This document shows, piece by piece, positions 5,801-63,559 of a DNA stretch of 64,000 bases (the stretch's first letter is position 1; the number at the start of each line of letters is the position of its first letter). A program made the translations under genes and the position numbers. Origin of the DNA: a virus (taxonomy: Duplodnaviria; Caudoviricetes); the IMG/VR virus record IMGVR_UViG_3300032312_002284, positions 1 through 64,000 of that record; one strand, given 5' to 3'. The notes beneath the pieces are model-generated. The model was not told where the DNA came from. It worked only from the letters and a program-made list of their open reading frames with translations, and searched no databases.

Positions 5801-8204
5801 ACACAATCAAATTGTTAATAATAATTCAGCTGACCAATTCGGAGGAAGAATGTTTTTCCCGTCATGGTTTTTCCAACCTGGAACTGAGTTCCAACCATTT
5901 CAGACTGAATTAACTAAATATTATGGTAGTATGGATGCGAGTTTAATTAACGCATTTAATGTGATACCATGGGAAACATCGTCTACAAATTTAAATTCAC
6001 AACAGGTAATTCAAAATTCAGAAGGTTATCTTCTTGTGAAAATGCAAGGTCAAACATTACAATGTGAAGAAGATATGCAGGCAAGTACTGGATATGGATG
6101 TAATGCTTTTACTGCTCACTATGAATGGGAAGGTGATGATAAATGGGGATTTCCACCACAACCTAACGATAATGCACTTGTTAATGGTGTAGGTGAAAAT
6201 GGAGGGGCTACTTGGGGTGGGTCCGCATATATGTTACACTATTCTAGTGGTGATTTAATGGGCGATTCGGTTGATGGATGTTCTTTTATGTATATGCATT
6301 TTGGTGGAGATAATAATGAATGGAAGAAAAGTAGGTCAGTTTATTACTCACCATCTTATTTAAATGGTACACCTCCTGGAACCTATGGTAATTTTGGTAA
6401 AACTTTAATAGATAATCCTACAAATATTGTTTTTCGTTCAGACAGACTACCAACGTCTACTACCACCACTACCGCTCAACGTAACCATTTTTTATTTTTC
6501 CAAAATAGAAATTTCTCAGCATTTAGGATTTCTGATACAGGTGAAGTGTACGCTTCCTCAAGTAGTGTTGATGGTATTGAATTAGAAAACGTTTTATTTT
6601 CTGACGGTTCTACTTTAGGGTCGTTGAATGACCAAGTAGTTGCAAGTTTTAGCGAATGTGCAAGTGCGGTACCTTTGAAATGTTATAACATTACTAATGA
6701 TGGAGTTGTTGTAATTGATGATTTTCCTGACTGTACCACAGGACCATTAGGAATACCTTATTTTCAAAATGGTAAAGGATGTTATTCATTAGTTACTATA
6801 CCTATTATTGGTATTCCTTGGGATTTTTTCAGGATTAATGAATGGTATAAGAGAACAATAACAAGTTTGTTTTTATGTATGGAAGGTATTCAGTATCATT
6901 TCTTTAATAATTGGGTTAGTGGTAACCTATTTATGCCAACATTTTATAGTATTACTGAATTAAATGACGACGGGTTTCCTATCAGAAAATATTGTGAAGA
7001 TATTATTGTCTTTCATGAAGACTCAAAAAATTATTATTATAGAAGTAGTCCATATAGATACGGATATGGTTTTATAGGTGGCAGGACTCGACAAAGAAAT
7101 GAAATTGCGGGATTAAATAATTATGTAAGGGGGAACTATAGGAATTTAAAAACACCAACAACAATAATAAATTTAGGACCAATAACTAATTACACTCAAG
7201 AATTAGTTCAAGGTGTTGGATATTCAGGGTATATTGCAAATACATTAACACCATCAAGTTTTAGAGATATTACAGATATTGTTAATTTTTTTGTTGCATC
7301 AAGACAAATTGAAACTGCGTATGAACAGGCCGTAAACACATTTGTTGCGATAAGTTTGGCTTTAGTAAATCCTTCAGTACTTTTATTAGTTGGTGGAGGA
7401 GACCCCACCAAAAACTTTTTTGGAGATAGAAACTCAAGAGAGCCGGATAAAATAAATGCTGATTTAGCACAAATGATTTCAATTAATTCGGAATATGGTG
7501 TTAAACCTTTTAATCCTGCAGGATACCCTTCGGCAAACTCGATAAGAATAATACCAATATATAATCTCTTTGATATTAATGTATTGTTAACTGCATTGGC
7601 GTCAGGAGGTGTTGCGGCACTCTTAACACCGGCAAAATTCACGATAGGTATTTTCTTCCAAAGTGATAATGGTAAGAGAGATGCAATTAGTCCAAAAAGA
7701 ATTATATGGAATCAAAACGCTCAATTACCATTCCAACCAAATGATGTTACATTATATACTCAAGTAAGTCAATCTGTACCATTTTATCAATGGCAGACTG
7801 ATTATATGACAAGAGCCGAATTTATAGAATTACCGTTAGGGATTAATATTCCATATCCTTTGTTAGGACAAGAAGTTATTTTTGGCTCACATAAGAATGA
7901 TTGGTACACAGAACCAATAAATAGTAATACCACTACATTCTTCCAAAGAAATATACAGTACTTAGACAGGACCGAAAATACCTCAAGATATTTTATGGCG
8001 GAATCTAATCAAGCAAAATACATGAAAGGGTTTATTTATAATGTAGATAGTGATGGTAATTTAAGAGAAGATTTAGGTAATATAACTGAAGACAAATATA
8101 CAGTTGGTTCACCTTATCATTTTTATTTTGGATTAAAAAAAGGTAGAACTGCCGTAGATTTATTCTACATAAAATATGTTGATAGTGAAATTGTAATTGA
8201 ATAA
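2820..8204 (+). CDS. Large virion/baseplate-associated protein (1794 aa) with long hydrophobic segments
   Basis: Long ORF inside the baseplate operon; N-terminal beta-sandwich-like motif (ICGRVFANNGFGVPNVKISLF); a ~65-aa hydrophobic stretch at about 4371-4566 and further hydrophobic patches near the C-terminus. Confidence 0.6.
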   Translation: MNSSYRVRTQVGVDKSVQVDLQQDFETLEILSLKLYQRDIYTRVCSDYGVICGRVFANNGFGVPNVKISLFIPLSDEDSRNPEIANIYPFSNISNLDVNGYRYNLLPKEESHSGHVPTGSFPTREEILKEKNYSEVYDKYYKFTVKTNDSGDYMIFGVPVGSFTIFLDLDLSDIGQFSLNPQDLIRIGLATEGQVSGVKFNASTNLNSLPQIISLTKQVEVLPLWGNQEICQPSITRTDFDLTAEANIDLTPTAVFMGSIMSTIEEAKIDNNCKIDKKVGDFCSLVTGPGQILAIRQTINYDTDINSQTFGFPQLEKYNLQNDGYVIDENGAWLLEVPMNLDYIYTNEFGEQVISTDPTIGVPTKGKYRFKVKWNQSPSLSEQTRRAYFLVPNVKEWGWGEPGNTYNDDENPAFYPEYSTNDNYLRYQQSYAFSLDWYDYGDPTTSEGLGMIQDAINCEDRFYLFEFKKVYTVSQLMDKYKNGNKLRFIGIKNILNDDCSAENNKYPVNDAYRGSNIMFLLFRYILSVMKLLLFPLVVVMHAISLVLYIVNFILQIIVWLIYAPIYYFIAAVVAVVNFLAPGAPLNNPLKKTPAELSRIIWDKLRIKKIPLPLLLQSENECTFCECKEGEDSQEYTNSAAGTLLSELGNSCHFPLNDGGAVTPTLDIPGEQQQNFPQVIAGLPNSGGNCSARIPTSAYNSPWATGGLTYDDEREFLFSNNLTFAERINLSNTKQKYFRESTAIRTYVEPDLNGNQFHTDNVLVTLIQGCDDIYQPGALITFQDPSLSTDPNFELGINETADGLYQISGTSTSATSITVSYCTLDNNTLTGTKVYNLPLKDSDEYLTFARYRFDMEYFQVVTAITYSQFISLGNGSASDLSSHGTFYHRIFKTPMSVMFAKDTSGNQSQFEAEFKGTVFCNESSFSELANSKIVIMVRGVDPYSPKYKIKYDISRILNRGYGQVVVGGGEDVMFKLNIPVQPGGTSTGNKKRSVRHNQIVNNNSADQFGGRMFFPSWFFQPGTEFQPFQTELTKYYGSMDASLINAFNVIPWETSSTNLNSQQVIQNSEGYLLVKMQGQTLQCEEDMQASTGYGCNAFTAHYEWEGDDKWGFPPQPNDNALVNGVGENGGATWGGSAYMLHYSSGDLMGDSVDGCSFMYMHFGGDNNEWKKSRSVYYSPSYLNGTPPGTYGNFGKTLIDNPTNIVFRSDRLPTSTTTTTAQRNHFLFFQNRNFSAFRISDTGEVYASSSSVDGIELENVLFSDGSTLGSLNDQVVASFSECASAVPLKCYNITNDGVVVIDDFPDCTTGPLGIPYFQNGKGCYSLVTIPIIGIPWDFFRINEWYKRTITSLFLCMEGIQYHFFNNWVSGNLFMPTFYSITELNDDGFPIRKYCEDIIVFHEDSKNYYYRSSPYRYGYGFIGGRTRQRNEIAGLNNYVRGNYRNLKTPTTIINLGPITNYTQELVQGVGYSGYIANTLTPSSFRDITDIVNFFVASRQIETAYEQAVNTFVAISLALVNPSVLLLVGGGDPTKNFFGDRNSREPDKINADLAQMISINSEYGVKPFNPAGYPSANSIRIIPIYNLFDINVLLTALASGGVAALLTPAKFTIGIFFQSDNGKRDAISPKRIIWNQNAQLPFQPNDVTLYTQVSQSVPFYQWQTDYMTRAEFIELPLGINIPYPLLGQEVIFGSHKNDWYTEPINSNTTTFFQRNIQYLDRTENTSRYFMAESNQAKYMKGFIYNVDSDGNLREDLGNITEDKYTVGSPYHFYFGLKKGRTAVDLFYIKYVDSEIVIE

Positions 8205-23791: not shown

Positions 23792-24472
23792 ATGGCGTTT
23801 CAATATTCACCAAAAATAGTTACGGACGGATTAGTGTTTTATTTAGACGCAGCTAACCCTAAATCATATGTTTCAGGGTCTACTGTTTGGAATGATATCT
23901 CACGTGGTGGGAATACAGGAACATTAGTTAATGGGCCAACTTTTAATAGTGGAAATGGAGGAAGTATAGTATTTGATGGAATAGATGACTATGTAGATTA
24001 CGGAAATAATACAGTGTTAAATGTTGGAAATAATATATCGGTATTTTCTTGGTTTTATGTTAATTCAACAAGTTCATTCCAACCAATTATATCTAAAAAA
24101 ACAATTGATACCGGTTGGGAATTAGATAATAGTAGTGGCACACTTAGATGTACATTAAGACCATCTATTGCCAATAATAATAATATCTTTGCTGGTACAT
24201 TAATATTAAATAATTGGTACTATGGAGGATTTACCTGTGATAATACAACAATTAGATTATATTTAAATAATACACAACAAGGTACATCAGATGTTAGCTC
24301 AATAACTCTAAATACTACAGGCTCTCTTTTTATAGGACGAAGAGCGGATGGTGTTAATCTTAATTATTTTAATGGTAAAATATCAATAGCACAAATATAT
24401 AATAGAGCCCTTACAGCACAAGAAGTACTCCAAAATTACAATGCCACTAAATCGAGATTTGGATTAACATAA
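23792..24472 (+). CDS. LamG / concanavalin A-like lectin domain protein 1
   Basis: DGLVFYLDAAN...GSIVFDGIDDY...WYYGGFT...FNGKISIAQIYNRALT. Confidence 0.85.
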   Translation: MAFQYSPKIVTDGLVFYLDAANPKSYVSGSTVWNDISRGGNTGTLVNGPTFNSGNGGSIVFDGIDDYVDYGNNTVLNVGNNISVFSWFYVNSTSSFQPIISKKTIDTGWELDNSSGTLRCTLRPSIANNNNIFAGTLILNNWYYGGFTCDNTTIRLYLNNTQQGTSDVSSITLNTTGSLFIGRRADGVNLNYFNGKISIAQIYNRALTAQEVLQNYNATKSRFGLT

Positions 24473-24473
24473 T

Positions 24474-25157
24474 ATGGCAGGAAGAATATCATATTACGGA
24501 GGGATAGTTAGAGATGGTTTAATCTTTGATTTAGATGCTGCTAAACGAGATTGTTACCCTGGAAGTGGTACAGTTATTAGAGAGATAACAGGTACTAATG
24601 TTATCGGTACTTTAATAAATGGACCAACCTTTAGTCTAAATAATGGAGGTTCAATTACATTTGATGGCACGGATGATTATGTAAGAATAAATCCGAATAA
24701 TATACAACCTTCAGCAGAGCTCTCAATAGAGTCGTGGTTTAATTCTTTTGGAAGTAATGGTAGAGGGCAAGGTATTTTTTACGCCAATTATGGTCTTGGT
24801 TTACGATTATCAACAACTGGCCAAATGCATTCAAGAGTTAATAGTGGTGCTGTATCATATCAAAACACAACTACCACAACATATTTTAACAATAGATGGA
24901 ATCACGTTGTTTTAACAATCAACTCAACGCAAGCAAAATTATATATTAATTCATCATTTTTAGAACAATATTCAATTTCATATAGTGGGAGTAACATTAA
25001 TTCCGCAAGTATTGGAGGTTTTGGAACTGACGTTAATGACTCAGCTAATAGAGGGCTTTATGGTAATGTGAGTGTATGTAGGGCGTATAATAAAGTATTA
25101 ACTGACCAAGAAGTTCTACAAAACTACAATGCGTTAAAAGGTAGATACGGTTTATAA
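24474..25157 (+). CDS. LamG / concanavalin A-like lectin domain protein 2
   Basis: DGLIFDLDAA...FDGTDDY...WNHVVLT...KLYIN...YNKVLT. Confidence 0.85.
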   Translation: MAGRISYYGGIVRDGLIFDLDAAKRDCYPGSGTVIREITGTNVIGTLINGPTFSLNNGGSITFDGTDDYVRINPNNIQPSAELSIESWFNSFGSNGRGQGIFYANYGLGLRLSTTGQMHSRVNSGAVSYQNTTTTTYFNNRWNHVVLTINSTQAKLYINSSFLEQYSISYSGSNINSASIGGFGTDVNDSANRGLYGNVSVCRAYNKVLTDQEVLQNYNALKGRYGL

Positions 25158-25169
25158 TATTTATAACAT

Positions 25170-25442
25170 ATGGAAACACAATTACAAGATTACGAACAAA
25201 GAGAATTTATGATATTTGGTACAAGTGAATTACCACTTATTGATTTTACACAAGTTTTAGAAACATCAATAGATACCGTTAGAAAGTCGGTTGATGAAAC
25301 AAAGACATTTGTTAAATGGGATGGTGACATCATTCCATCAAGTGTGGGTTCTTTAACAACAAAGGAAGGCCCATACTCTTATGAAGAAATATTAAACATT
25401 TTATCAACTCCTGAATGGACATCTCCTGAACCAATTATATGA
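25170..25442 (+). CDS. Small fibre-associated hypothetical protein
   Basis: 90 aa between LamG genes; TATTTAT at 25158-25164. Confidence 0.65.
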   Translation: METQLQDYEQREFMIFGTSELPLIDFTQVLETSIDTVRKSVDETKTFVKWDGDIIPSSVGSLTTKEGPYSYEEILNILSTPEWTSPEPII

Positions 25443-26149
25443 GTACAGTACAAAATAATGGTGTAGTTACTGATGGATTAGTTTTATACTTGGATGCTGC
25501 AAATACTAAATCATATGTTAGTGGGAGTACCACTTGGAATGATATTTCAAGAAGTAATGTTAGTGGTACGTTAGTTAATGGACCTACTTTTAATACTGGG
25601 AATGGAGGAAGTATTGTGTTTGATGGGGTAGATGATTATTTTATTACACCATCATTTGCATTAAATTCACCAACAGATTGTTTAAGTTTTAATTTTTGGG
25701 TAAAATCCATTTCACAGACACCTAGCGCACAATCTATTTTAGGTAAAGATACAAATACTGGAGGAGTACCACACCTTTTAATAAGAAGAAATGCGAATAG
25801 TGATTCTTTGGTTTGGAATTTTTTTAATGGGTCAACATCAAATACACTAGGGTTTAGTAATTTTTTTACAAATTATGATAATACTTGGATTAATATCCAA
25901 GTAGTTGCTGATTACACCAGTGATACTGTTACAGTTTATAGGAACGGAATATTCTTTAATAAACTATCTCAACCATCTGCGATTTTTCCTAATACTAATA
26001 CTGTTATGTATTTAAGTAGTTTCGCAATAAATGCTTTTTTAGTTTTTTATGGTAATATAACATCATCACAAATTTACAACCGAGCTCTATCATCTTCAGA
26101 GGTCCTCCAAAACTACAACGCCCAAAAATCAAGATTTGGATTGAGTTAA
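25439..26149 (+). CDS. LamG / concanavalin A-like lectin domain protein 3
   Basis: N- and C-termini nearly identical to LamG protein 1; variable core. Confidence 0.85.
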   Translation: MSTVQNNGVVTDGLVLYLDAANTKSYVSGSTTWNDISRSNVSGTLVNGPTFNTGNGGSIVFDGVDDYFITPSFALNSPTDCLSFNFWVKSISQTPSAQSILGKDTNTGGVPHLLIRRNANSDSLVWNFFNGSTSNTLGFSNFFTNYDNTWINIQVVADYTSDTVTVYRNGIFFNKLSQPSAIFPNTNTVMYLSSFAINAFLVFYGNITSSQIYNRALSSSEVLQNYNAQKSRFGLS

Positions 26150-26204: not shown

Positions 26205-29200
26205 ATGGCAAACGAATTTAATATAAAAAATGGTTTTATAACCAGCGGAAACTCTGTTGTTTATGCGGGGTTAAATGTAACGAGTGGATTAACCGCAACA
26301 ACAATATCTGCAACAACTTATTTTAACTTACCATCTTCAAGTGGTGGAACATTTACAGGAGGAACTGTATCAGGGGGAACTAACTTCACAGGTGGGGTTA
26401 CTGCAAATACAGTATCACAGGTTAATTATATTGACTTTACAACAGGGTCAACAAATCCATCTCAAACAGGGGGAAGAATGTTCTTTGATAATGTATCAAA
26501 TGCTCTTTCTTATTATGATGTGGACAATAGTTTAGTACCAATTGCGATGGGACAACAACTCTACACAAGAGTTTATAATGGTACAGGAGTTCAGATTGAT
26601 AAGGGTAAAGTAATTACAATTACTGGAACAACTATTGGTTTACCGAGTATAAGATTGGCGACCAATAATCACACATTACAAAGTCCAAGACCTGTTGGAC
26701 TTGCGGCTGAGAACATACCGAATGGAGGTACAGGGTTAGTTTTAAATAATGGCATTTTAAGTGGAATAACACTTAACACATTTGCAAATGGTGATACGTT
26801 ATACCTTTCTGATACAATTCCTGGTGAGTATGTTAATTCAACATCGTCATTATCTTTTACGGCAAGAACAAATGAAATTGGATATGTTCTTCAAACAGGT
26901 ACAACGACAGGTAAGATTTATGTTAATATCAATAATGAAGATAGTAATCTAACTCTAACGGATATTGAAAGAAATATCTTGGAGGGTAATGTCATTTCAG
27001 GTGGTGTTTATGAATACACTGGAATGACTCAGGGTACGGGTCAAACAATTAACGTTGCATATGCTAGAGGATGGATTGTTAAAAATACATATTCATTTGC
27101 AACATTACCTGATGTAACCAATGTTTATTATTCAGGTGGAACAAACATACCTTTAACATATTTGAATAGTGCAGATGCAACATATATTTTAATTAATAGT
27201 GCATCAACACTCTATCAACAAACGTCATTTCCAACACCACAACAAAGAAGGGAAAATATATTTCTTGGTAAGGTAGTTCATCCAAATAGAAGTACGATTA
27301 CATCAATTAACCAAACGGTTGACTTTGATGTATCTCCTATGGCAGCACTTCGTGACTTGTGGACACCATTAAAATTAATTAATCAGGGTGTTATTGTTTC
27401 ATATTATAGTGCGGGTACGATGAGCATTCAGACATCTGCCGGAACATTATGGGGTAATGGTATTGGGTGGACGACGAATCAATTAAATCCTGATAGTATT
27501 TCCATTTCAGGAACATCACCAACCACATTTCAATATCGTTCAAGATTAGGTCCTATTACAGGTTCAACATCAAACCCTGGTGACCCAGCGGCACCAACTG
27601 GAAATACAACAACAATTGATTCTCACCATTATGACTTAAATGGTAGTATTGTTCCTGTAGGTGGTAATAACAGGGCAACAAATCAAAGGATTTATTTGTT
27701 TCCAACTGGGTTAATTAGAATACAGTATGGTCAGTTTTCATATTCAAGTATGGCAAATGCTATTGCTGGTATAGATACTGAAATATTCGTTGAATACGGG
27801 AATAATAGAGATAACGGTATATTAATAGGTATATTAACGGTTCGTGAAGATGCCTCTGACTTATCGTTAACCACCGATGCTCAATTTAGGTTTGTATCAA
27901 AATTTGGTGAGTTATTAGCCGGCGCTGGAGGTATATCAACAACAACTTTACAACAAGCATATGAAAATTCAGCAACACCTGAAATAGTAACAAATTCAGC
28001 AGAAGGAGCATTATCAATCCAAAATGGAACGGGAGCTGCGGATAATGTAACAAATTTATTTGAGGGTAGAAATACCGCAACATCACTCACATCATTCATT
28101 AGAGCTGATGGAGCGTTTTCAGGAACTTCAATATTTGGAACAGGATTAACTGCGACTACAATATCTGCAACAACTGCAACGATAAGAAAAATTACAGGTG
28201 GTTCAGGTAATACCAATTCAGGAACATATTCATTTATAGGTGGGGGTCAATCAAATTCGGCAACAGGTAATTGTAGTGTAGTTGGTGGAGGACGACAAAA
28301 CACCTTGAGTGGGTCATATTCATTTATTGGTGGTGGACTTTGTAACACAGCAAGTAATAATTGCTCAACCGTAAGTGGAGGATATAAGAACACTGTACTA
28401 AGTACGTCATCATTTATTGGTGGTGGAAGATGTAATATCTCCAACATTGCTGGAGGAGGTAACACTAATAGTGATGTTATTGTTGGAGGTATCTCTAACT
28501 CAACATCATCGGGATATTATGGAGTTGGTCAAAATTTTATCGGAGGTGGAGTTACAAATTCCATATGTGGTGATTATAATGTTGTTGTGGGTGGGGGTGG
28601 AAATTCTGTAAATGATATATCGGAATATTCGGCGATAGTCGGAGGATATAACAATAAGATTTGTTTTGCACCTTCTTACTCACAATATTCTGTGATTGGT
28701 GGTGGAGAGTCAAATGTATTATCCGCAACTCATAGTTTTATTGGTGGAGGAGAATTGAATACTATTTCAGGATTTACTTGTTATTCTGTAATTGGTGGTG
28801 GTTTTTGTAATAGAGTTACGTGTAATTTATCAAGTGTCGCGGGTGGGGTTTTAAATAGAATATCAGGTCAAAATTCATTTATTGGAGGTGGAAGTGGTAA
28901 TACTGTTTCAGGTCAATATTCATTTATTGGTGGAGGATGTAATAACATTACAAGTGGTAATACATCAACCGTAGGTGGAGGACGATGTAATATTGCAAAT
29001 GGAGCGTGTTCATTTATTGGTGGAGGTCAGTTTAACACCGCAAGTAGTACGGGTTCGACCATAGCTGGAGGACTTTGTAATATTGCCGGTGGAGCGTATT
29101 CATTTGTTGGTGGAGGTACGGGTAATACGATGAGCTCATCTACAACTTGTTTTAGTTCAATAAGTTCAGGTGTTAGAAACAATGTTGCTTGTCGTCATTC

Positions 29201-31026: not shown

Positions 31027-31086
31027 TTATTGGTTTTCTATTTACCAAAAATATTCTTAAATTATTTTTTTAAAAAAAAATTAATT

Positions 31087-31977
31087 ATGAATATAATTTT
31101 ACAAATTAATGGTGGGTTAGGTAAATGTATTGTAGCCACCGCAATAACAGAAATAATTAAAAAAAAATATCCTAATTCTAAACTTATTGTTGTCTCAGGA
31201 TATCCTGATGTTTTCTTAAATAATCCTTATGTTGACCGAGCGTTTAATTTTGGTGAACATTCTTATTTTTATTCTGATTATATTGAAGATAAAGAATTTA
31301 AACTTTTGGCTCATGACCCATATCTTGAGACTAACCATATTAATAAAACAGAACATTTAATTGAAACTTGGTGTAAATTATTTGATTTGGAATATAATGG
31401 GGAACTACCAAACATATATCTAACTGAAAGAGAGATTAATTTCTTTTCAAGAAAATATACAACTGATAAACCAATCATGGTTATTCAAACTAATGGAGGG
31501 GTTGAACAAAATTTAAAATATTCATGGGCTCGAGATATTCCGTCACATATCGTTGAAAATGTGATTGAAAAATTTAAATATGGTTATACTATTTTTCATT
31601 TAAAAAGAGAAGACCAAATGTCATTTTCTAATACAATCCCTGTAACTGATACTTTTAGGTCAATTGCCACTTTGATTGCTATAAGTGATAAAAGATTTTT
31701 CATGGATAGTTTTGGACAACATGTTGCAGGGGCTTTAAAGTTAGAATCAACAGTTTTGTGGGTTGTAAATTCACCAAAAGTTTTTGGATATGAGACAAAT
31801 AAGAACATAACTTCTAAACCTTTCACAAAGAAAGCAGAATTAAAAATGTCGTATATTAATAAATTTAATATACAAGGGGAACCTTTGGAATTCCCATACA
31901 ATAGTGAATTTGAAATGTTCGATATTGATGACGTAATAAATTCTTTGAGTAATAATGAATATACCAATACCAAATAA
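31087..31977 (+). CDS. Glycosyltransferase, GT9 / heptosyltransferase-like (GT-B fold)
   Basis: NGGLGKCIVATAITEIIKKKYPNSKLIVV...VFLNNPYVD and LIAISDKRFFMDSFGQHVAGAL match the GT9 GLGD..., P.A.I and DSG..H.A.A motifs; start moved to the ATG at 31087. Confidence 0.75.
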   Translation: MNIILQINGGLGKCIVATAITEIIKKKYPNSKLIVVSGYPDVFLNNPYVDRAFNFGEHSYFYSDYIEDKEFKLLAHDPYLETNHINKTEHLIETWCKLFDLEYNGELPNIYLTEREINFFSRKYTTDKPIMVIQTNGGVEQNLKYSWARDIPSHIVENVIEKFKYGYTIFHLKREDQMSFSNTIPVTDTFRSIATLIAISDKRFFMDSFGQHVAGALKLESTVLWVVNSPKVFGYETNKNITSKPFTKKAELKMSYINKFNIQGEPLEFPYNSEFEMFDIDDVINSLSNNEYTNTK

Positions 31978-32341
31978 AATAGAAGTTAAATCATCCCCAA
32001 TCCATGGGTTTGGTGTCTTTGCAACCGAAAAGATTTTAAAAAACGAGATAATTGAAACTTGTTATTCAATTTTCTTCAAAACCAATTTGGGTTATAATGA
32101 TGATATATTATTAAAATATCGTTTCTCATATCCTTGTGGTTCGGCTCCAATAAAGTATGCAATACCCTTAGGATACGGATGTATCTATAATCATAGTGAT
32201 GATAATAATGCGACATGGACGTGTGATTCAGACAATGGTATGTATTATTTCATTGCTGTAAGAGACATTGAACCAGGTGAAGAAATTTGTACATCATATG
32301 GAAAAAAAGAATATTGGGAATCAGTAAAAAAAATATATTAA
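31955..32341 (+). CDS. SET-domain methyltransferase
   Basis: SPIHGFGVFATEKI...IYNHSDDNNA...AVRDIEPGEEICTSYG (GxG, NHS and GEExxxxY motifs). Confidence 0.9.
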   Translation: MNIPIPNKIEVKSSPIHGFGVFATEKILKNEIIETCYSIFFKTNLGYNDDILLKYRFSYPCGSAPIKYAIPLGYGCIYNHSDDNNATWTCDSDNGMYYFIAVRDIEPGEEICTSYGKKEYWESVKKIY

Positions 32342-32343
32342 AA

Positions 32344-33168
32344 ATGGAAAAATTATTTTTTCAGAGTTCACTACCACGAGCAGGTAGTACTCTACTACAA
32401 AACATTTTAGCTCAAAATCCTAACATATACGCAACACCGACAAGTGGTGTTTTAGAATTAGTGTACGCAGCTAGAGCAAACTATAGTAATTCACCTGAAT
32501 TTAAAGCTCAGGACCCTGAACTTATGAAAAATGGATTTTTATCTTTTTGTAGAGAAGGATTGAAAGGTTTTTATGAAGGTGTAACTGATAAAAAGTATGT
32601 GATTGATAAAAGTAGAGGATGGGGAGTCCATTATGGATTTTTACAACAAATTGTTGATAAACCAAAAGTTGTTTGTATGGTGAGAGACCTTAGAGATATC
32701 TATACCTCTATGGAAAAAAACTTTAGAAAAAATCAACACAAAGATTTTGGGATTGTAAATCATTCTGATTTAACAGGTACATCAACACCTAAAAGAATAG
32801 ATATTTGGGCAAATTCCCAACCAGTTGGAATGGCAATTGAAAGACTTCAAGAAATTTTTAGACAGGGTATTAATGAAAATATTATGTTTGTTAAGTATGA
32901 AGATTTATGTTTGTATCCCGATTTAATCATGAGAAAAATTTATGAATATTTTGAAATACCTTATTTTGAACATGATTTTGAAAACATTGAACAAATAACA
33001 AAAGAAGATGATGAAGTGTATGGTATTTTTGGAGACCATAAGATAAAAAAGACTTTGGAGTTGTTACCGTCAGATTCACAAAAAATTTTAGGGCCGGATG
33101 TGTGTGATTGGATTTATAATAATTATGGGTGGTATAATGAAATTTTTAAGTACCCTAAAAATATATGA
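32344..33168 (+). CDS. PAPS-dependent sulfotransferase
   Basis: 5'-PSB loop LPRAGSTLL, DKSR, 3'-PB MVRDLRDIYTS, VKYEDL; start moved to the ATG at 32344. Confidence 0.88.
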   Translation: MEKLFFQSSLPRAGSTLLQNILAQNPNIYATPTSGVLELVYAARANYSNSPEFKAQDPELMKNGFLSFCREGLKGFYEGVTDKKYVIDKSRGWGVHYGFLQQIVDKPKVVCMVRDLRDIYTSMEKNFRKNQHKDFGIVNHSDLTGTSTPKRIDIWANSQPVGMAIERLQEIFRQGINENIMFVKYEDLCLYPDLIMRKIYEYFEIPYFEHDFENIEQITKEDDEVYGIFGDHKIKKTLELLPSDSQKILGPDVCDWIYNNYGWYNEIFKYPKNI

Positions 33169-51687: not shown

Positions 51688-52209
51688 ATGGAATATATAC
51701 TTTTTGCTTTTGGGGATTACAAGGAAACTGAACCTCACATTAAATTAATAATTGATTGTGTTTCACAAATATCTAAAAAAGACGTAAGGTATCAATACGG
51801 AGATGCGGGAATAATAGTTAACTTTGAAACATCATTGGATACTGATGGAATCAGTAAATTTTTTGAAGAATCAATAACTAAATTGACCGCAATGTTTTTT
51901 GTTTTTCCTGTAAACGATAATATGATTCTTTCTATGGATGAAGATATTCATAGTCATTTATTTGGTGAAACTGACAAAAAGTCAGAAAGTCATGTTAAAA
52001 ATTTTACAATCGATATGACTGACATACCTAAGTTTGGTGATAGTGATATGACTGATTCTATGGAAAAACTTTTTAGTATATTATTTAAACCACAAACAAT
52101 ACCTAACGAAGTACTTACTTTGGACCAATTATTGGACAAGATAAATGAGTCAGGTATTGACTCACTAACTGAAAACGAAATCAAATTATTAAATGAATAC
52201 TCAAAATAA
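51688..52209 (+). CDS. Hypothetical protein with a C-terminal DUF6576-like motif
   Basis: LDQLLDKINESGIDSLTENEIKLL resembles the D.ILDKI..sG..SLT..E motif; start moved to the ATG at 51688. Confidence 0.6.
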   Translation: MEYILFAFGDYKETEPHIKLIIDCVSQISKKDVRYQYGDAGIIVNFETSLDTDGISKFFEESITKLTAMFFVFPVNDNMILSMDEDIHSHLFGETDKKSESHVKNFTIDMTDIPKFGDSDMTDSMEKLFSILFKPQTIPNEVLTLDQLLDKINESGIDSLTENEIKLLNEYSK

Positions 52210-58716: not shown

Positions 58717-58896
58717 ATGGAAACAACTATTGAAAAAATCAAAGCTTTAACAGAGTCTCTTTCAGGTGATGTCACTAAATTCAATAACGGGAATAACAGT
58801 GCTGGGACTAGAGCTAGAAAAACATCACAAGAATTAAAATCATTATTACAAACTTTAAGAGGTGAAATTCTTGAAAAAAGAAAAGAAGAAAAATAA
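58717..58896 (+). CDS. Histone H1-like (Hc1 family) small protein
   Basis: Not in the track; translated by hand as METTIEKIKALTESLSGDVTKFNNGNNSAGTRARKTSQELKSLLQTLRGEILEKRKEEK; contains the GNxxAGxRARK signature. Confidence 0.85.
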   Translation: METTIEKIKALTESLSGDVTKFNNGNNSAGTRARKTSQELKSLLQTLRGEILEKRKEEK

Positions 58897-60480: not shown

Positions 60481-61407
60481 ATGGAGAATTATTATAGTGC
60501 TTTAGGGGTGTCAGAAAATGCGACACAGGAAGAAATAAAAAAAGCGTACAAAAAACTTGCTGTACAACATCATCCTGATAAAGGAGGTAATGAGGAAACG
60601 TTTAAAAAAATTTCAGAAGCGTACGACACTTTAGGAAACCCGGAAAAAAAACAACAATATGATTTACAGAAAAATAATCAATTTGGTGGTGGAGATGGGT
60701 TTGACCCATTTAGTATGTTCTCAAACATGTTTAATAACATGGGAGGTGGACAAAGAAAGAATCCAGATAAAGTTGTTAATTTAAAAGTTGGTGTTTTTGA
60801 GGCTTATAGAGGGGGAAGAAAATCTGTATCATACATGAGAAATGACAAGTGTGATGTTTGTTATGGTACAGGTGGAGATAAAGAGACTTGTAAACCATGT
60901 CAAGGACATGGGTACTTCACTCAGAGAGTAGGGAATGGATTTTTTCAAACAATTCAAAGAAGTACATGCCAGGCTTGTAATGGGAAAGGGTTTAGATATA
61001 CTAAAGCGTGTTATTCATGTAATGGTAGTACAAACATGGTAAAAATGCAAAACATCGATATTGAATTACCTAGAGGTGTTGATGATGGTACATTCTTCAA
61101 ATCACATGGAGGTGGAGATTATTTAAATGGTTCTTATGGTGATTTATTATTTAAAGTTGAAGTTGTTTCTGAAAATAATTTTGATAAAGTAGGTGCTGAT
61201 TTAGTATATAATTATGACTTTACTGTTGATAGTCTTAATGATGAAAAAATAAATATACCTCATCCTGACGGGAGTTTACAAATTGATTTCCCAAATGACT
61301 TGGAAACAAAAAAACCTTTACGTGTTAAAGGTAAAGGTTTTTACAGAGACGGAAGTGATTTGTACGTAAAATTTAATTTCAAACACAAGAAGTTAAAAGA
61401 ATGTTAA
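60481..61407 (+). CDS. dnaJ: DnaJ (Hsp40) co-chaperone, type I
   Basis: J-domain with HPD; G/F region; four CxxCxGxG repeats; C-terminal substrate-binding domain. Confidence 0.95.
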
Positions 61408-62216: not shown

Positions 62217-62660
62217 TTATTTACGTTTAATTTTAACGTATCTGTACCACAATCTTTCATGAAGAAAATAAATTACAGGTTTAAGAAGTAACTCACCAAT
62301 ACCTAATAAAGAAGACATTTCTAATGATACTCCACAGGAAAGTGCAACCAATACTGTAGTTAAGGTACCAAGTAATCTATAAGAAATAGTTTTTAAAATA
62401 TGACGAAGAATAACAGTTTCTTCCTTTACTGTTTTAACATAAGCAATGTTATCGACCACATTACAATGACCTTCACAACTGATGTGCCATTTATAATCAT
62501 TTAATTCAGGCATCCAATCCTTTGTTGTGAAAGTATGACCATCAATGATAATGTCAGAAACTAATATTTCATTACCATCTTCAATTAATCTCCATCTATC
62601 ATTTTCAGATGTTGATACGGTATTAAATCTGATTTGAAATTTTTTGATTTTGTTTTTCAT
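62217..62660 (-). CDS. DUF2061 membrane-domain protein with an extra N-terminal domain
   Basis: RHILKTISYRLLGTLTT...YFLHERLW matches DUF2061. Confidence 0.75.
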   Translation of the reverse strand: MKNKIKKFQIRFNTVSTSENDRWRLIEDGNEILVSDIIIDGHTFTTKDWMPELNDYKWHISCEGHCNVVDNIAYVKTVKEETVILRHILKTISYRLLGTLTTVLVALSCGVSLEMSSLLGIGELLLKPVIYFLHERLWYRYVKIKRK

Positions 62661-63055
62661 AGTTTTCCTTGAGCTCTTAATTCTTCTCTTATCTTTGTTG
62701 CTGAAATATCGTGTATTTCTTGTGGTGGAATTCTTTCAATGATATTATAACCAACACCTCGTCCAAATTCAATAGAACAAATATCAGGAATAACCATAAC
62801 TTTTATCTTGTTACCCATATCAGAATAATGTTCTTCAATATTTTTTTTAACTTCTTCGGCACTATATGGATTTTTTTCATCAGGTTGAATATCTCTGATA
62901 CAAATTAAAACGTTTTTACCTTCATCTAAAGCCTGTTGAAATAAAGATTGATGACCTTTATGTAAAGGTTGCCATCTACCAACAAACATTGCATATTGAC
63001 CATCTTTTGCAGGTAGTGATGATTCTACGTGAATTTTTTTATCCCAAGTACTCAT
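62657..63055 (-). CDS. HIGH-superfamily nucleotidyltransferase (cytidylyltransferase-like)
   Basis: MFVGRWQPLHKGH (HxGH) and ISATKIR (KMSKS-equivalent); start moved to the ATG at 63055, overlapping the cysC stop (ATGA). Confidence 0.85.
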   Translation of the reverse strand: MSTWDKKIHVESSLPAKDGQYAMFVGRWQPLHKGHQSLFQQALDEGKNVLICIRDIQPDEKNPYSAEEVKKNIEEHYSDMGNKIKVMVIPDICSIEFGRGVGYNIIERIPPQEIHDISATKIREELRAQGKL

Positions 63056-63480
63056 TTTTTGTTGAAAGGTATTAAATGAAGACATTCATCTATTGTTTTA
63101 TTTGTGGTATCAATATCTATAAAGTTTTCAGTAGGTTGTTCATACTCTTTAACAAAGTTTTGTTCTCTACCTCTAATTTCACTTGTATGAACATAGATTT
63201 CAACAACCTTATTTGTTTTCTTTAATGAGTCCCTCATTTCTTTGTAAGGAGCCACAACAGAAATTACAACTGTAAATCCCTTGTGGTCTAAAAAACGAGC
63301 CAAATCAACAACAGATTGGATATTCTTAATTCTACCTTCAGGTGAATAATCAAAGTTTTGAAATAACTCCCTCAAACCATCTCCATCAACATTAATACAA
63401 TTATCTGAACACTTTTCAATTAATGCATTTGCCAATGTTGTTTTTCCAGCACCTGGCTGACCTGTAAACCAATAAATCAT
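63052..63480 (-). CDS. cysC: Adenylylsulfate (APS) kinase
   Basis: IYWFTGQPGAGKTT P-loop; VDGDGLR; DYSPEGRIKN; VVAPY..MR; YEQP. Confidence 0.9.
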   Translation of the reverse strand: MIYWFTGQPGAGKTTLANALIEKCSDNCINVDGDGLRELFQNFDYSPEGRIKNIQSVVDLARFLDHKGFTVVISVVAPYKEMRDSLKKTNKVVEIYVHTSEIRGREQNFVKEYEQPTENFIDIDTTNKTIDECLHLIPFNKK

Positions 63481-63559
63481 ATATTATTTTTTAAAAAAAT
63501 AATATATTAATTGTCTTGGTAAATAGAAAAATATATTAATCAGTTTTTGATATTTGAAA

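Follow-up and report, generated by a model that had tools for sequence, protein, structure and literature searches.

A candidate PAPS-fed glyco-sulfation unit beside the fibre genes of an uncultured lake phage

Background

Why should a phage carry, within its fibre region, three modifying enzymes in tandem--a glycosyltransferase (GT)-like protein, a SET-domain methyltransferase and a sulfotransferase (ST)? The question is raised by positions 31087-33168 of IMG/VR virus record IMGVR_UViG_3300032312_002284 (Caudoviricetes), which comes from a large, uncultured lake phage. The stretch analyzed here, termed the window, covers the first 64 kb (~30% G+C) of this linear, 86,155-bp record, for which CheckV gives a completeness of 29%. 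A preliminary description of the locus, made from the sequence alone, had read the trio as a candidate virion glyco-sulfation system, that is, as a set of enzymes that decorates the phage's own surface proteins with sulfated and possibly methylated glycan.

The function of sulfotransferases in phages has been called unclear (2023 paper, PMC10580990), and elsewhere such an enzyme is listed merely as a known auxiliary gene (PMC8290583). Large aquatic Bacteroidota phages are described as having core glycosyltransferases together with DnaK/DnaJ; that source (PMC12619734) does not mention sulfation. A full-text literature search found no published description of an operon combining a GT, an ST and genes for the supply of 3'-phosphoadenosine 5'-phosphosulfate (PAPS). 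The comparison reported here indicates that the ST forms one half of an operon that is very common and almost entirely viral, in which it has a constant partner and a dedicated supply of its donor, and which lies at fibre genes. What was a vague ST annotation thereby becomes a proposal open to test, namely that phage particles, or the cells they infect, carry sulfated glycans.

Results

A conserved gene pair and its PAPS module

Two scans of IMG/VR underlie the comparison. A query with the GT-like protein yielded 39 loci (39-91% identity), whose gene content was scored within 10 kb; a reciprocal query with the ST yielded at least 464 matching stretches, the best 79 of which were analyzed. The two sets share the closest relatives, so that their counts are not independent; open reading frames (ORFs) in related loci are simple ATG-based calls, and fibre-like counts come from tblastn with low-complexity masking off. 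Across ~120 IMG/VR loci in all, the GT-like gene and the ST gene are nearly always adjacent: an ST is present in 33 of the 39 GT-query loci, and a GT-like gene in 76 of the 79 ST-query loci, two of the three exceptions ending at a contig boundary. Three further genes recur beside them, encoding an adenosine 5'-phosphosulfate (APS) kinase, cysC (21 of 39 and 65 of 79), a nucleotidyltransferase (14 and 59) and a DUF2061 membrane protein (16 and 56), as do fibre-like repeats (27 and ~60); SET is found in only 9 and 8. The commonest order, GT-ST-cysC-nucleotidyltransferase-DUF2061, occurs in 45 of the 79 ST loci and usually lies just 3' of a beta-roll fibre. Moreover, the identities of the GT-like protein and the ST to their window counterparts co-vary (r 0.85, n=112 loci), as that of cysC does not. 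The preliminary description had proposed synteny among relatives as a check and had staked its proposal on co-occurrence with fibre genes: for the GT-ST pair, both are what the loci show.

Both families are large and viral: the GT-like family comprises more than 1600 clusters, and the ST family more than 3300, at 90% identity, and 96-100% of their members in the Atlas are viral. Sequence comparison thus supports the view that the GT-like protein and the ST constitute a conserved functional pair that is probably fed by the phage's own PAPS module, and a PAPS-fed glyco-sulfation unit is well supported.

The window's three genes fill 31087-33168 on one strand (Table 1), as first described, and form a tightly coupled operon, with a repeat fibre upstream and a Pro/Thr-linker protein downstream: the start of the SET gene overlaps the stop of the GT-like gene by 23 nt, and the ST begins at an ATG 2 nt past the SET stop. 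That translation truly begins at this ATG (32344) is shown by the relatives, which share the MEKLFF start. An antisense ORF of 125 aa (31596-31973) is an artefact that arises from overlap with the GT frame. The composition of the cassette resembles that of the remainder of the contig, and hence there is no sign of recent foreign insertion.

In the window, the PAPS genes lie elsewhere: at 62217-63480 on the opposite strand, 30 kb from the cassette and behind a second fibre-type operon, the last gene of which has a weak match to a Gly-rich family. By contrast, a six-gene form is contiguous in L001 (the closest relative), L005, L006, L011 and L012, and cysC lies directly 3' of the ST in these and in the majority of the 79 ST-query loci; L002-L004 are arranged like the window. 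In its PAPS module the window matches the L005 group (L005, L006, L011 and L012) at 91-94% identity; the GT-like protein and ST of that group are only 68-76% identical to the window's, and the pattern is reversed for L001 (GT-like protein and ST 91-92%, cysC 84%, DUF2061 70%). From these opposite patterns it follows that the split arrangement is a mosaic product in which common control was kept: the PAPS module would have moved 30 kb off in the window genome and been retained under a copy of the two-box element described below. In another relative (L007, 223 kb), all that is left of cysC directly 3' of the ST is its first 21 codons (6115-6177), which are 100% identical to those of the window, and an inverted DnaJ region comes next; the arrangement has the appearance of a scar left at the ST-cysC joint by a deletion or rearrangement. 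The DUF2061 protein has one hydrophobic stretch, near residue 103.

The nucleotidyltransferase was also considered as an HldC-like adenylyltransferase that prepares the donor of the GT. This idea was set aside: the best-matching models are NMNAT-type rather than RfaE domain II, the gene tracks cysC and not the GT, and the complete relatives encode no heptose kinase or isomerase. Five relatives were searched for pathway genes, and three of these are 94-100% complete; none of the five has the ADP-heptose genes PfkB or SIS_2, which shows only that these phages make no ADP-heptose themselves.

The GT-like protein: GT9 fold with an altered catalytic position

The hidden Markov model searches that the preliminary description had suggested recovered two of its three families above the Pfam cut-offs (22.4 bits for PF00856, 27 for PF13469 and 22 for PF00685): SET and Sulfotransfer_3, but not GT9. 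The GT-like protein matches nothing in Pfam (up to E 10) or NCBIfam, PF01075 has no match anywhere in the whole record, and a profile search of PDB sequences with the family likewise returned no match; 7 of 24 relatives match PF01075 weakly (best 3.3e-5). Structure prediction is more informative. The AlphaFold model, based on a 24-sequence alignment, scores 92 for predicted local distance difference test (pLDDT) and 0.90 for predicted template modelling (pTM), and its best Foldseek matches in the PDB are all GT9 proteins: a Veillonella GT9 (3tov, 5.2e-13), WaaF (1psw, 9.9e-12), WaaC (2h1h, 5.2e-9) and TibC (4rb4, 2.7e-8), with TMq 0.56-0.63. Plant NDH subunits also appear among the fold matches. 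Consistent with this, profile alignment (hhalign) of the family with WaaC/WaaF/WaaQ gives a probability of 80%.

The donor-site motif D(S/T)GxxH is retained, inasmuch as DSFGQH pairs with DTGLSH of WaaC (D261...H266) and also with DSGLMH. Residues D207, S208, H212, W147 and G137-G138 are invariant in the 24 sequences, and among the family's invariant residues are the equivalents of W194 and D261 of WaaC. At the catalytic Asp13 of WaaC, on the other hand, the phage family has an invariant Lys, K13 (GLGK versus SMGD, by profile alignment rather than structural superposition), whereas WaaC/WaaF/WaaQ/L193 all keep G12-D13. Proteins of the phage family are acidic (median isoelectric point, pI, 5.7, versus 9.0 for WaaC), and Cys is conserved only at C96, C14 being variable. 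Going by sequence and model, then, the protein is GT9-like in fold and donor site but not a demonstrable GT9 member, so that the GT9 identity first assigned to it stands as to fold and motif and not as to family membership. Such an Asp-to-Lys derivative of GT9 may be a new type of transferase.

Among longer proteins no GT-ST fusion was found, only fusions of the GT-like domain to an unknown domain or to GT25 (P0244, 1169 aa); elsewhere it is fused to an FkbM methyltransferase (L044:10001-11632, 544 aa).

The sulfotransferase: PAPS-using, with a fold that leaves the acceptor class unread

The ST matches PF13469 (Sulfotransfer_3) at 65.9 bits (E 8.4e-18) and PF00685 at 46.4 bits. Its 5'-phosphosulfate loop, PRxGST (PRAGST in the window protein), is invariant in 21 sequences, as are P11, R12, S15, T16, R114 and S122, where R114...S122 corresponds to the 3'-phosphate motif; a sulfotransferase of PAPS-using fold, as first described, is thus confirmed. 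In the Foldseek comparison of its model (pLDDT 89.5), the nearest folds are the protein-tyrosine sulfotransferases TPST1/2 (TPST1, 5wrj, 5.2e-9, TMq 0.65), with the CurM ST and heparan-sulfate 3-O-sulfotransferases ranking below, and the best PDB sequence match is likewise a TPST (E 3e-4). The Arg of the phosphosulfate-binding (PSB) loop and an NKDP-type Lys (K89) are conserved. In a phmmer alignment, however, the catalytic Glu of TPST (GEET in TPST1) falls on an invariant TPTS stretch, which includes the invariant T33. Because a TPST-like fold is combined with TPTS at the catalytic Glu, the class of acceptor is not readable from the fold. Two ST paralogues occur in tandem in one relative (L041:916-2549).

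SET: a passenger of one clade

The SET assignment itself is secure: the protein matches PF00856 at 55.1 bits (E 1.2e-14), its best PDB match is chlorovirus vSET (1n3j, 119 aa; 9e-13), and eight sequences show no variation in GFGVFA, YNHS and EEICTSYG, its versions of the GxG, NHS and ExxxxY motifs. What did not hold up is its membership of a functional trio. Phage SET homologues recovered in a profile scan number at least 110, and among the best 80 placed in context SET lies between GT and ST only in the nine closest, the other 71 lying elsewhere; conversely, SET is absent from 30 of the 39 GT-query and 71 of the 79 ST-query cassettes. A 322-kb, 100%-complete relative (G001) has the cassette without SET, and in a 318-kb relative (G002) SET is ~240 kb away from the cassette. 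SET is a separately mobile passenger that was inserted between GT and ST in one clade. In other clades (L042, L043 and L045) the same slot holds an FkbM-type methyltransferase; methylation is often part of the pathway, therefore, but via a sugar-type methyltransferase rather than SET.

SET enzymes are protein-lysine methyltransferases and are not known to act on sugars; chlamydial SET methylates the histone H1-like protein Hc1. The window encodes a 59-aa Hc1 protein at 58717-58896 (PF07432, 1.1e-19). Hc1 occurs in four of five large relatives; of those four, two have SET, and both SET-bearing relatives examined (n=2) also encode Hc1. As a lead, the likeliest substrate of SET is a protein, such as the phage Hc1, rather than a glycan. 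In L090 and ~13 other SET loci, a mini-SET gene lies beside proteins whose N-termini, judged by eye, resemble those of QueC, QueD and QueE (7-deazaguanine, or queuosine, pathway) and of thioredoxin.

Fibre and glycan genes around the cassette

Outside the cassette, the gene met most often is a member of the repeat fibre family (75 of 120 loci). In 41 of 113 loci a gene of the fibre cluster takes the first or second position upstream, in many cases separated from the cassette by a small ORF, and ~20 loci have tail sheath and tube genes close by. One relative's fibre matches UspA1_rep, a trimeric-autotransporter repeat, and a beta-roll family. By comparison, only 14 of 48 loci have a protein with a Pro/Thr tract near the cassette: the Pro/Thr-linker proteins, first seen as partners of the cassette, lose weight in that role and are rejected as the conserved acceptor.

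In relatives, the cassette adjoins transferases of the GT2, GT4, GT25, GT32, PF11397 and HtrL types, PIG-L deacetylase domains and 2-oxoglutarate oxygenases. Together with the GT25 and FkbM fusions, these neighbours imply that the cassette belongs to glycan construction. Giant fusions also stand beside the cassette: FkbM-GT32-GT4-GT9 (L019:2858-7198, 1447 aa), GT4-GT9-PIG-L (L013:10880-14623, 1248 aa) and GT4-GT9 (L014:10906-13047, 714 aa). No Wzx flippase, Wzy/WaaL polymerase or ligase, or initiating phosphoglycosyl transferase was found in the five relatives.

In L007 the counterpart of the acidic 72-aa ORF that separates the window's fibre from its cassette has 96% identity, even though the adjoining GT-like protein is only 69% identical, and small ORFs of mutually unrelated families occupy the fibre-cassette gap in 37 of 113 loci; this ORF may encode a fibre-assembly helper. 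Between two giant fibre genes (window 23792-26149) are three paralogues of ~230 aa; the one scanned (23792-24472) is a concanavalin-A-like lectin (Laminin_G_3, 3.4e-21), and the paralogues are likely to be sugar-binding fibre tips.

Separate control of the cassette

The same two boxes, TTTTCTATTTACCAA and ATTATTTTTTTAAAAAA, 12 nt apart, precede both the GT-like gene and cysC exactly, and the 12-nt spacers of the two copies are unrelated--as expected from selection on a two-box regulatory site rather than from a fresh duplication. Within the contig, the pattern TTTAC[CA]-N16-TATTTTTTTAAAAAA occurs only before the GT-like gene, cysC and the Hc1 gene (58717). L007 has a near-identical element upstream of its GT-like gene.

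A different motif, TATTTATA, occurs 26 times in the contig on both strands, and 12 of these occurrences sit 8-39 nt 5' of a same-strand start: at 25158, 26166, 33202, 35617, 56524 and 61578 in the window, and at 69085, 71299, 71310, 71657, 79307 and 80665 in the rest of the contig. The genes so preceded include structural genes at 26205, 33215 and 35632 and the fibre gene at 66864; for the Pro/Thr-linker gene the distance is 13 nt. The motif is likely to be a late-promoter motif of this phage lineage. The GT-SET-ST cassette lacks TATTTATA and has its own two-box element instead. Read in this way, the cassette appears to be a separately controlled unit within the fibre region and not simply part of a fibre operon, though read-through from upstream may occur. 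Upstream regions vary among relatives; in three (L008, L009 and L040) a host-type TAnnTTTG (-7) box precedes the cassette. Scans for sigma-70 and terminator consensus sequences around the cassette did no better than on shuffled sequences.

A third promoter class consists of TTTG...TAnnTTTG upstream boxes, which are typical of Bacteroidota housekeeping promoters and are found at 51688 and 61753 (minus strand) in the window and at 74456 and 74790 in the contig. Ten further copies of the cassette are on short contigs binned with freshwater Bacteroidota metagenome-assembled genomes, a host clue that fits these Bacteroidota-type promoters. The window also encodes a full DnaJ (J domain, Cys-rich and C-terminal domains; 60481-61407). 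Phage DnaK/DnaJ are a hallmark of the freshwater 'moraphage' lineage, according to PMC12619734, and the contig may accordingly lie in or near that lineage. Against cultured phages, blastn of the region gave no match and tblastn gave only distant marine matches (22-37%).

Table 1. Coordinates in the window of the cassette, its candidate control elements, the PAPS module and adjoining genes
Feature	Position	Strand	Remarks
GT9-like GT-B fold protein, 296 aa	31087-31977	+	ATG start; fold and motif; virus-specific family
Minimal SET-domain lysine methyltransferase, 128 aa	31955-32341	+	PF00856; insert restricted to one clade
PAPS-dependent sulfotransferase, 274 aa	32344-33168	+	PF13469 and PF00685; TPST-like fold
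Two-box element, candidate promoter of GT-SET-ST operon	31034-31077	+	TTTTCTATTTACCAA, 12 nt, ATTATTTTTTTAAAAAA
Two-box element, copy 2, upstream of cysC	63487-63530	-	Same boxes as before the GT-like gene
Short APS kinase, cysC, 142 aa	63052-63480	-	TIGR00455, 7.6e-22
HIGH-type nucleotidyltransferase, NMNAT-like, 142 aa	62657-63085	-	TIGR00125, 8.6e-10, and NMNAT models
DUF2061 membrane protein, 147 aa, last gene of PAPS module	62217-62660	-	PF09834, 3.2e-12
Gly/Ser/Asn repeat fibre, 1532 aa	26205-30803	+	Upstream neighbour; candidate acceptor
Acidic ORF between fibre and cassette, 72 aa	30808-31026	+	pI 4.05; no family match
Pro/Thr-linker and leucine-rich repeat protein, 789 aa	33215-35584	+	LRR_8; downstream neighbour

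Discussion

What the cassette may do

An account of the observed gene content, folds, motifs, synteny and co-inheritance is proposed as follows. The GT-B protein of GT9-like fold would bind a nucleotide-sugar, and the PAPS-dependent ST would work with this GT-like partner; the phage's PAPS module--which in most relatives appears as the 3' half of one five-gene operon--would supply the two enzymes through its APS kinase, small nucleotidyltransferase and DUF2061 protein. None of the five proteins of the unit has a signal peptide and PAPS is cytoplasmic, which places the chemistry in the cytoplasm of the infected cell. The product would be a sulfated sugar residue on a glycan built on the phage's own virion proteins, the likeliest acceptor being the beta-roll fibre encoded just upstream; a bacterial adhesin that is glycosylated by an adjacently encoded GT9-fold enzyme would serve as the model. 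What we infer here is which reaction comes first, which sugar is donated and what serves as acceptor. On this analysis, the two-enzyme GT-ST unit and the PAPS module may well decorate the phage's own virion, specifically its fibre, with sulfated glycan, SET being separate; the proposal is a tentative one, given slightly less than an even chance. It is the best reading of the locus because the enzymes are cytoplasmic, no export genes were found in the five relatives, the transferase is acidic, the fibre is a fixed neighbour and there is the adhesin-GT9 precedent. Of the virion glyco-sulfation system first suggested, a GT-ST unit with a PAPS supply beside the fibres has therefore been retained, the virion target is a matter of interpretation and SET has been dropped.

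If virions are sulfated, this would be a new virion chemistry, one that bears on adsorption, on host range and on the stickiness of phages in lakes. In its most specific form the proposal is that large freshwater Bacteroidota phages coat their beta-roll fibres with sulfated glycan by means of a virus-only GT9-derived transferase, a TPST-like ST and a private PAPS pathway. This full version is on the unlikely side, though worth stating: if true, it would make these the first phage particles with a sulfated decoration, and the glycan could mimic the sulfated polysaccharides that are captured at the surface of Bacteroidota hosts.

Several points weigh against fibre decoration. The ends of fibre operons often hold accessory genes for other reasons, such as receptor modification; DUF2061, a membrane protein, hints at a membrane-linked step; and, given the Lys in place of the catalytic Asp, the GT-like protein may be no ordinary glycosyltransferase. 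The nearest solved ST folds are those of protein-tyrosine rather than carbohydrate sulfotransferases. Upstream, the cassette has a different element from the TATTTATA of the fibre genes, and some relatives have a host-type box, so that expression may not be late. Finally, no close relative is in culture.

Other explanations

One alternative is that the cassette remodels an envelope glycan of the host--the core of lipopolysaccharide (LPS) or lipo-oligosaccharide, or a capsule precursor--on the cytoplasmic face of the inner membrane, and that the host exports the product, with the effect of blocking superinfection or of keeping progeny from sticking to debris. Phage receptor-modifying genes typically adjoin tail-fibre genes, the GT9, GT25 and HtrL_YibB types in and around the cassette are bacterial LPS-core families, and both the membrane protein DUF2061 and the host-type -7 box of L008, L009 and L040 would fit. 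Yet the GT family is acidic, unlike WaaC, lacks the catalytic Asp of GT9 and is almost wholly viral; lipid-carrier, flippase and ligase genes were not found in the complete relatives; and relatives devote up to ~ten glycan genes, giant multi-GT fusions included, to the task, a heavy investment if exclusion is the purpose. Host-envelope remodelling is accordingly rated as unlikely, albeit as an explanation to be taken seriously.

The ST could instead be a protein-tyrosine sulfotransferase acting on virion or host proteins, with the GT-like protein working independently on the same protein or serving as an adaptor. The TPST1/2 matches and the conserved PSB Arg and K89 point this way, and RaxST, which has its own PAPS genes RaxP and RaxQ, is a bacterial precedent. 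Nevertheless, the TPTS stretch stands where TPST has its catalytic Glu; few bacterial carbohydrate STs of the same Pfam family have been solved, which biases the fold ranking; and the tight GT-ST pairing and the glycan-gene neighbours better fit a sugar acceptor. Tyrosine sulfation is for these reasons improbable.

A little less probable again is the suggestion that the GT-like protein is not a glycosyltransferase at all, but a nucleotide-binding partner or an enzyme of other chemistry on a charged substrate, within a unit that sulfates a small molecule or lipid. The invariant Asp13-to-Lys swap and the missing Pfam match could be taken in this sense, and GT9-fold proteins without transferase activity do exist, the plant NDH subunits among the fold matches being an example. 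Against this, the donor-site residues are invariant, and the fusions to GT25 and to FkbM methyltransferase indicate glycan work.

Very improbable is the full earlier reading, in which GT, SET and ST constitute a single pathway, with glycosylation, methylation and sulfation of one and the same substrate. Reading frames do overlap or abut in the window and in eight related loci, and in other clades an FkbM methyltransferase fills the GT-ST slot and is once fused to the GT; SET enzymes, however, act on protein lysines rather than sugars, and the SET gene is missing from most cassettes, including that of complete G001, and otherwise mostly lies elsewhere, as in G002. Glycosylation of DNA as the target was rejected, as it has no support from a neighbourhood of structural and polysaccharide-type genes.

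Relation to known systems

Fibre decoration by a GT-ST unit, the reading preferred here, may be compared first with other viruses that glycosylate their particles. The capsid and tail-tube glycans of mycobacteriophages (as cited in PMC12619734) and the fibril glycosylation clusters of Megavirinae (PMC10117803) resemble it in that virus-encoded GTs, often accompanied by methyltransferases, are thought or have been shown to decorate the particle; the accessible portions of these two sources mention neither sulfation nor a PAPS supply, and the enzymes belong to other families. As to SET, chlorovirus vSET (PBCV-1 A612L, PDB 1n3j) is likewise a minimal domain of ~120 aa with the same motifs, and the phage, in a likeness to the chlamydial SET-Hc1 pair, encodes Hc1 under the same class of upstream element; unlike either, the phage SET lies inside a glycan cassette, and in one clade only.

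The TibC-TibA and Aah-AIDA-I systems (PDB 4rap/4rb4) are the closest in arrangement, since there, too, a cytoplasmic enzyme of GT9 fold is encoded beside an adhesin of repeat beta-structure. These bacterial autotransporter heptosyltransferases (BAHT; TibC/Aah) are, however, ~400 aa long with an iron-binding four-Cys motif, whereas the phage protein is shorter (296 aa), lacks the Cys cluster and matches in fold only; it has Lys at the position of Asp13 of WaaC, complete relatives are without an ADP-heptose pathway, and it is paired with an ST, which the TibC/Aah systems lack. With WaaC/WaaF (CAZy GT9, PF01075) the phage protein has in common the GT-B fold, the D(S/T)GxxH donor motif and the equivalents of W194 and D261; it differs in having no PF01075 match, in the Lys that replaces Asp13 and in being acidic rather than basic.

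On the sulfation side, NodH with NodP/NodQ sulfates Nod factors and RaxST with RaxP/RaxQ sulfates tyrosine. The phage unit is like both in that the ST is genetically linked to its own sulfate-activation genes. The supply differs--a short APS kinase, a 142-aa NMNAT-like nucleotidyltransferase and DUF2061 in the phage, CysD/N-type enzymes in the NodH/RaxST type--and the phage unit, unlike those systems, is viral and has a GT-B partner.

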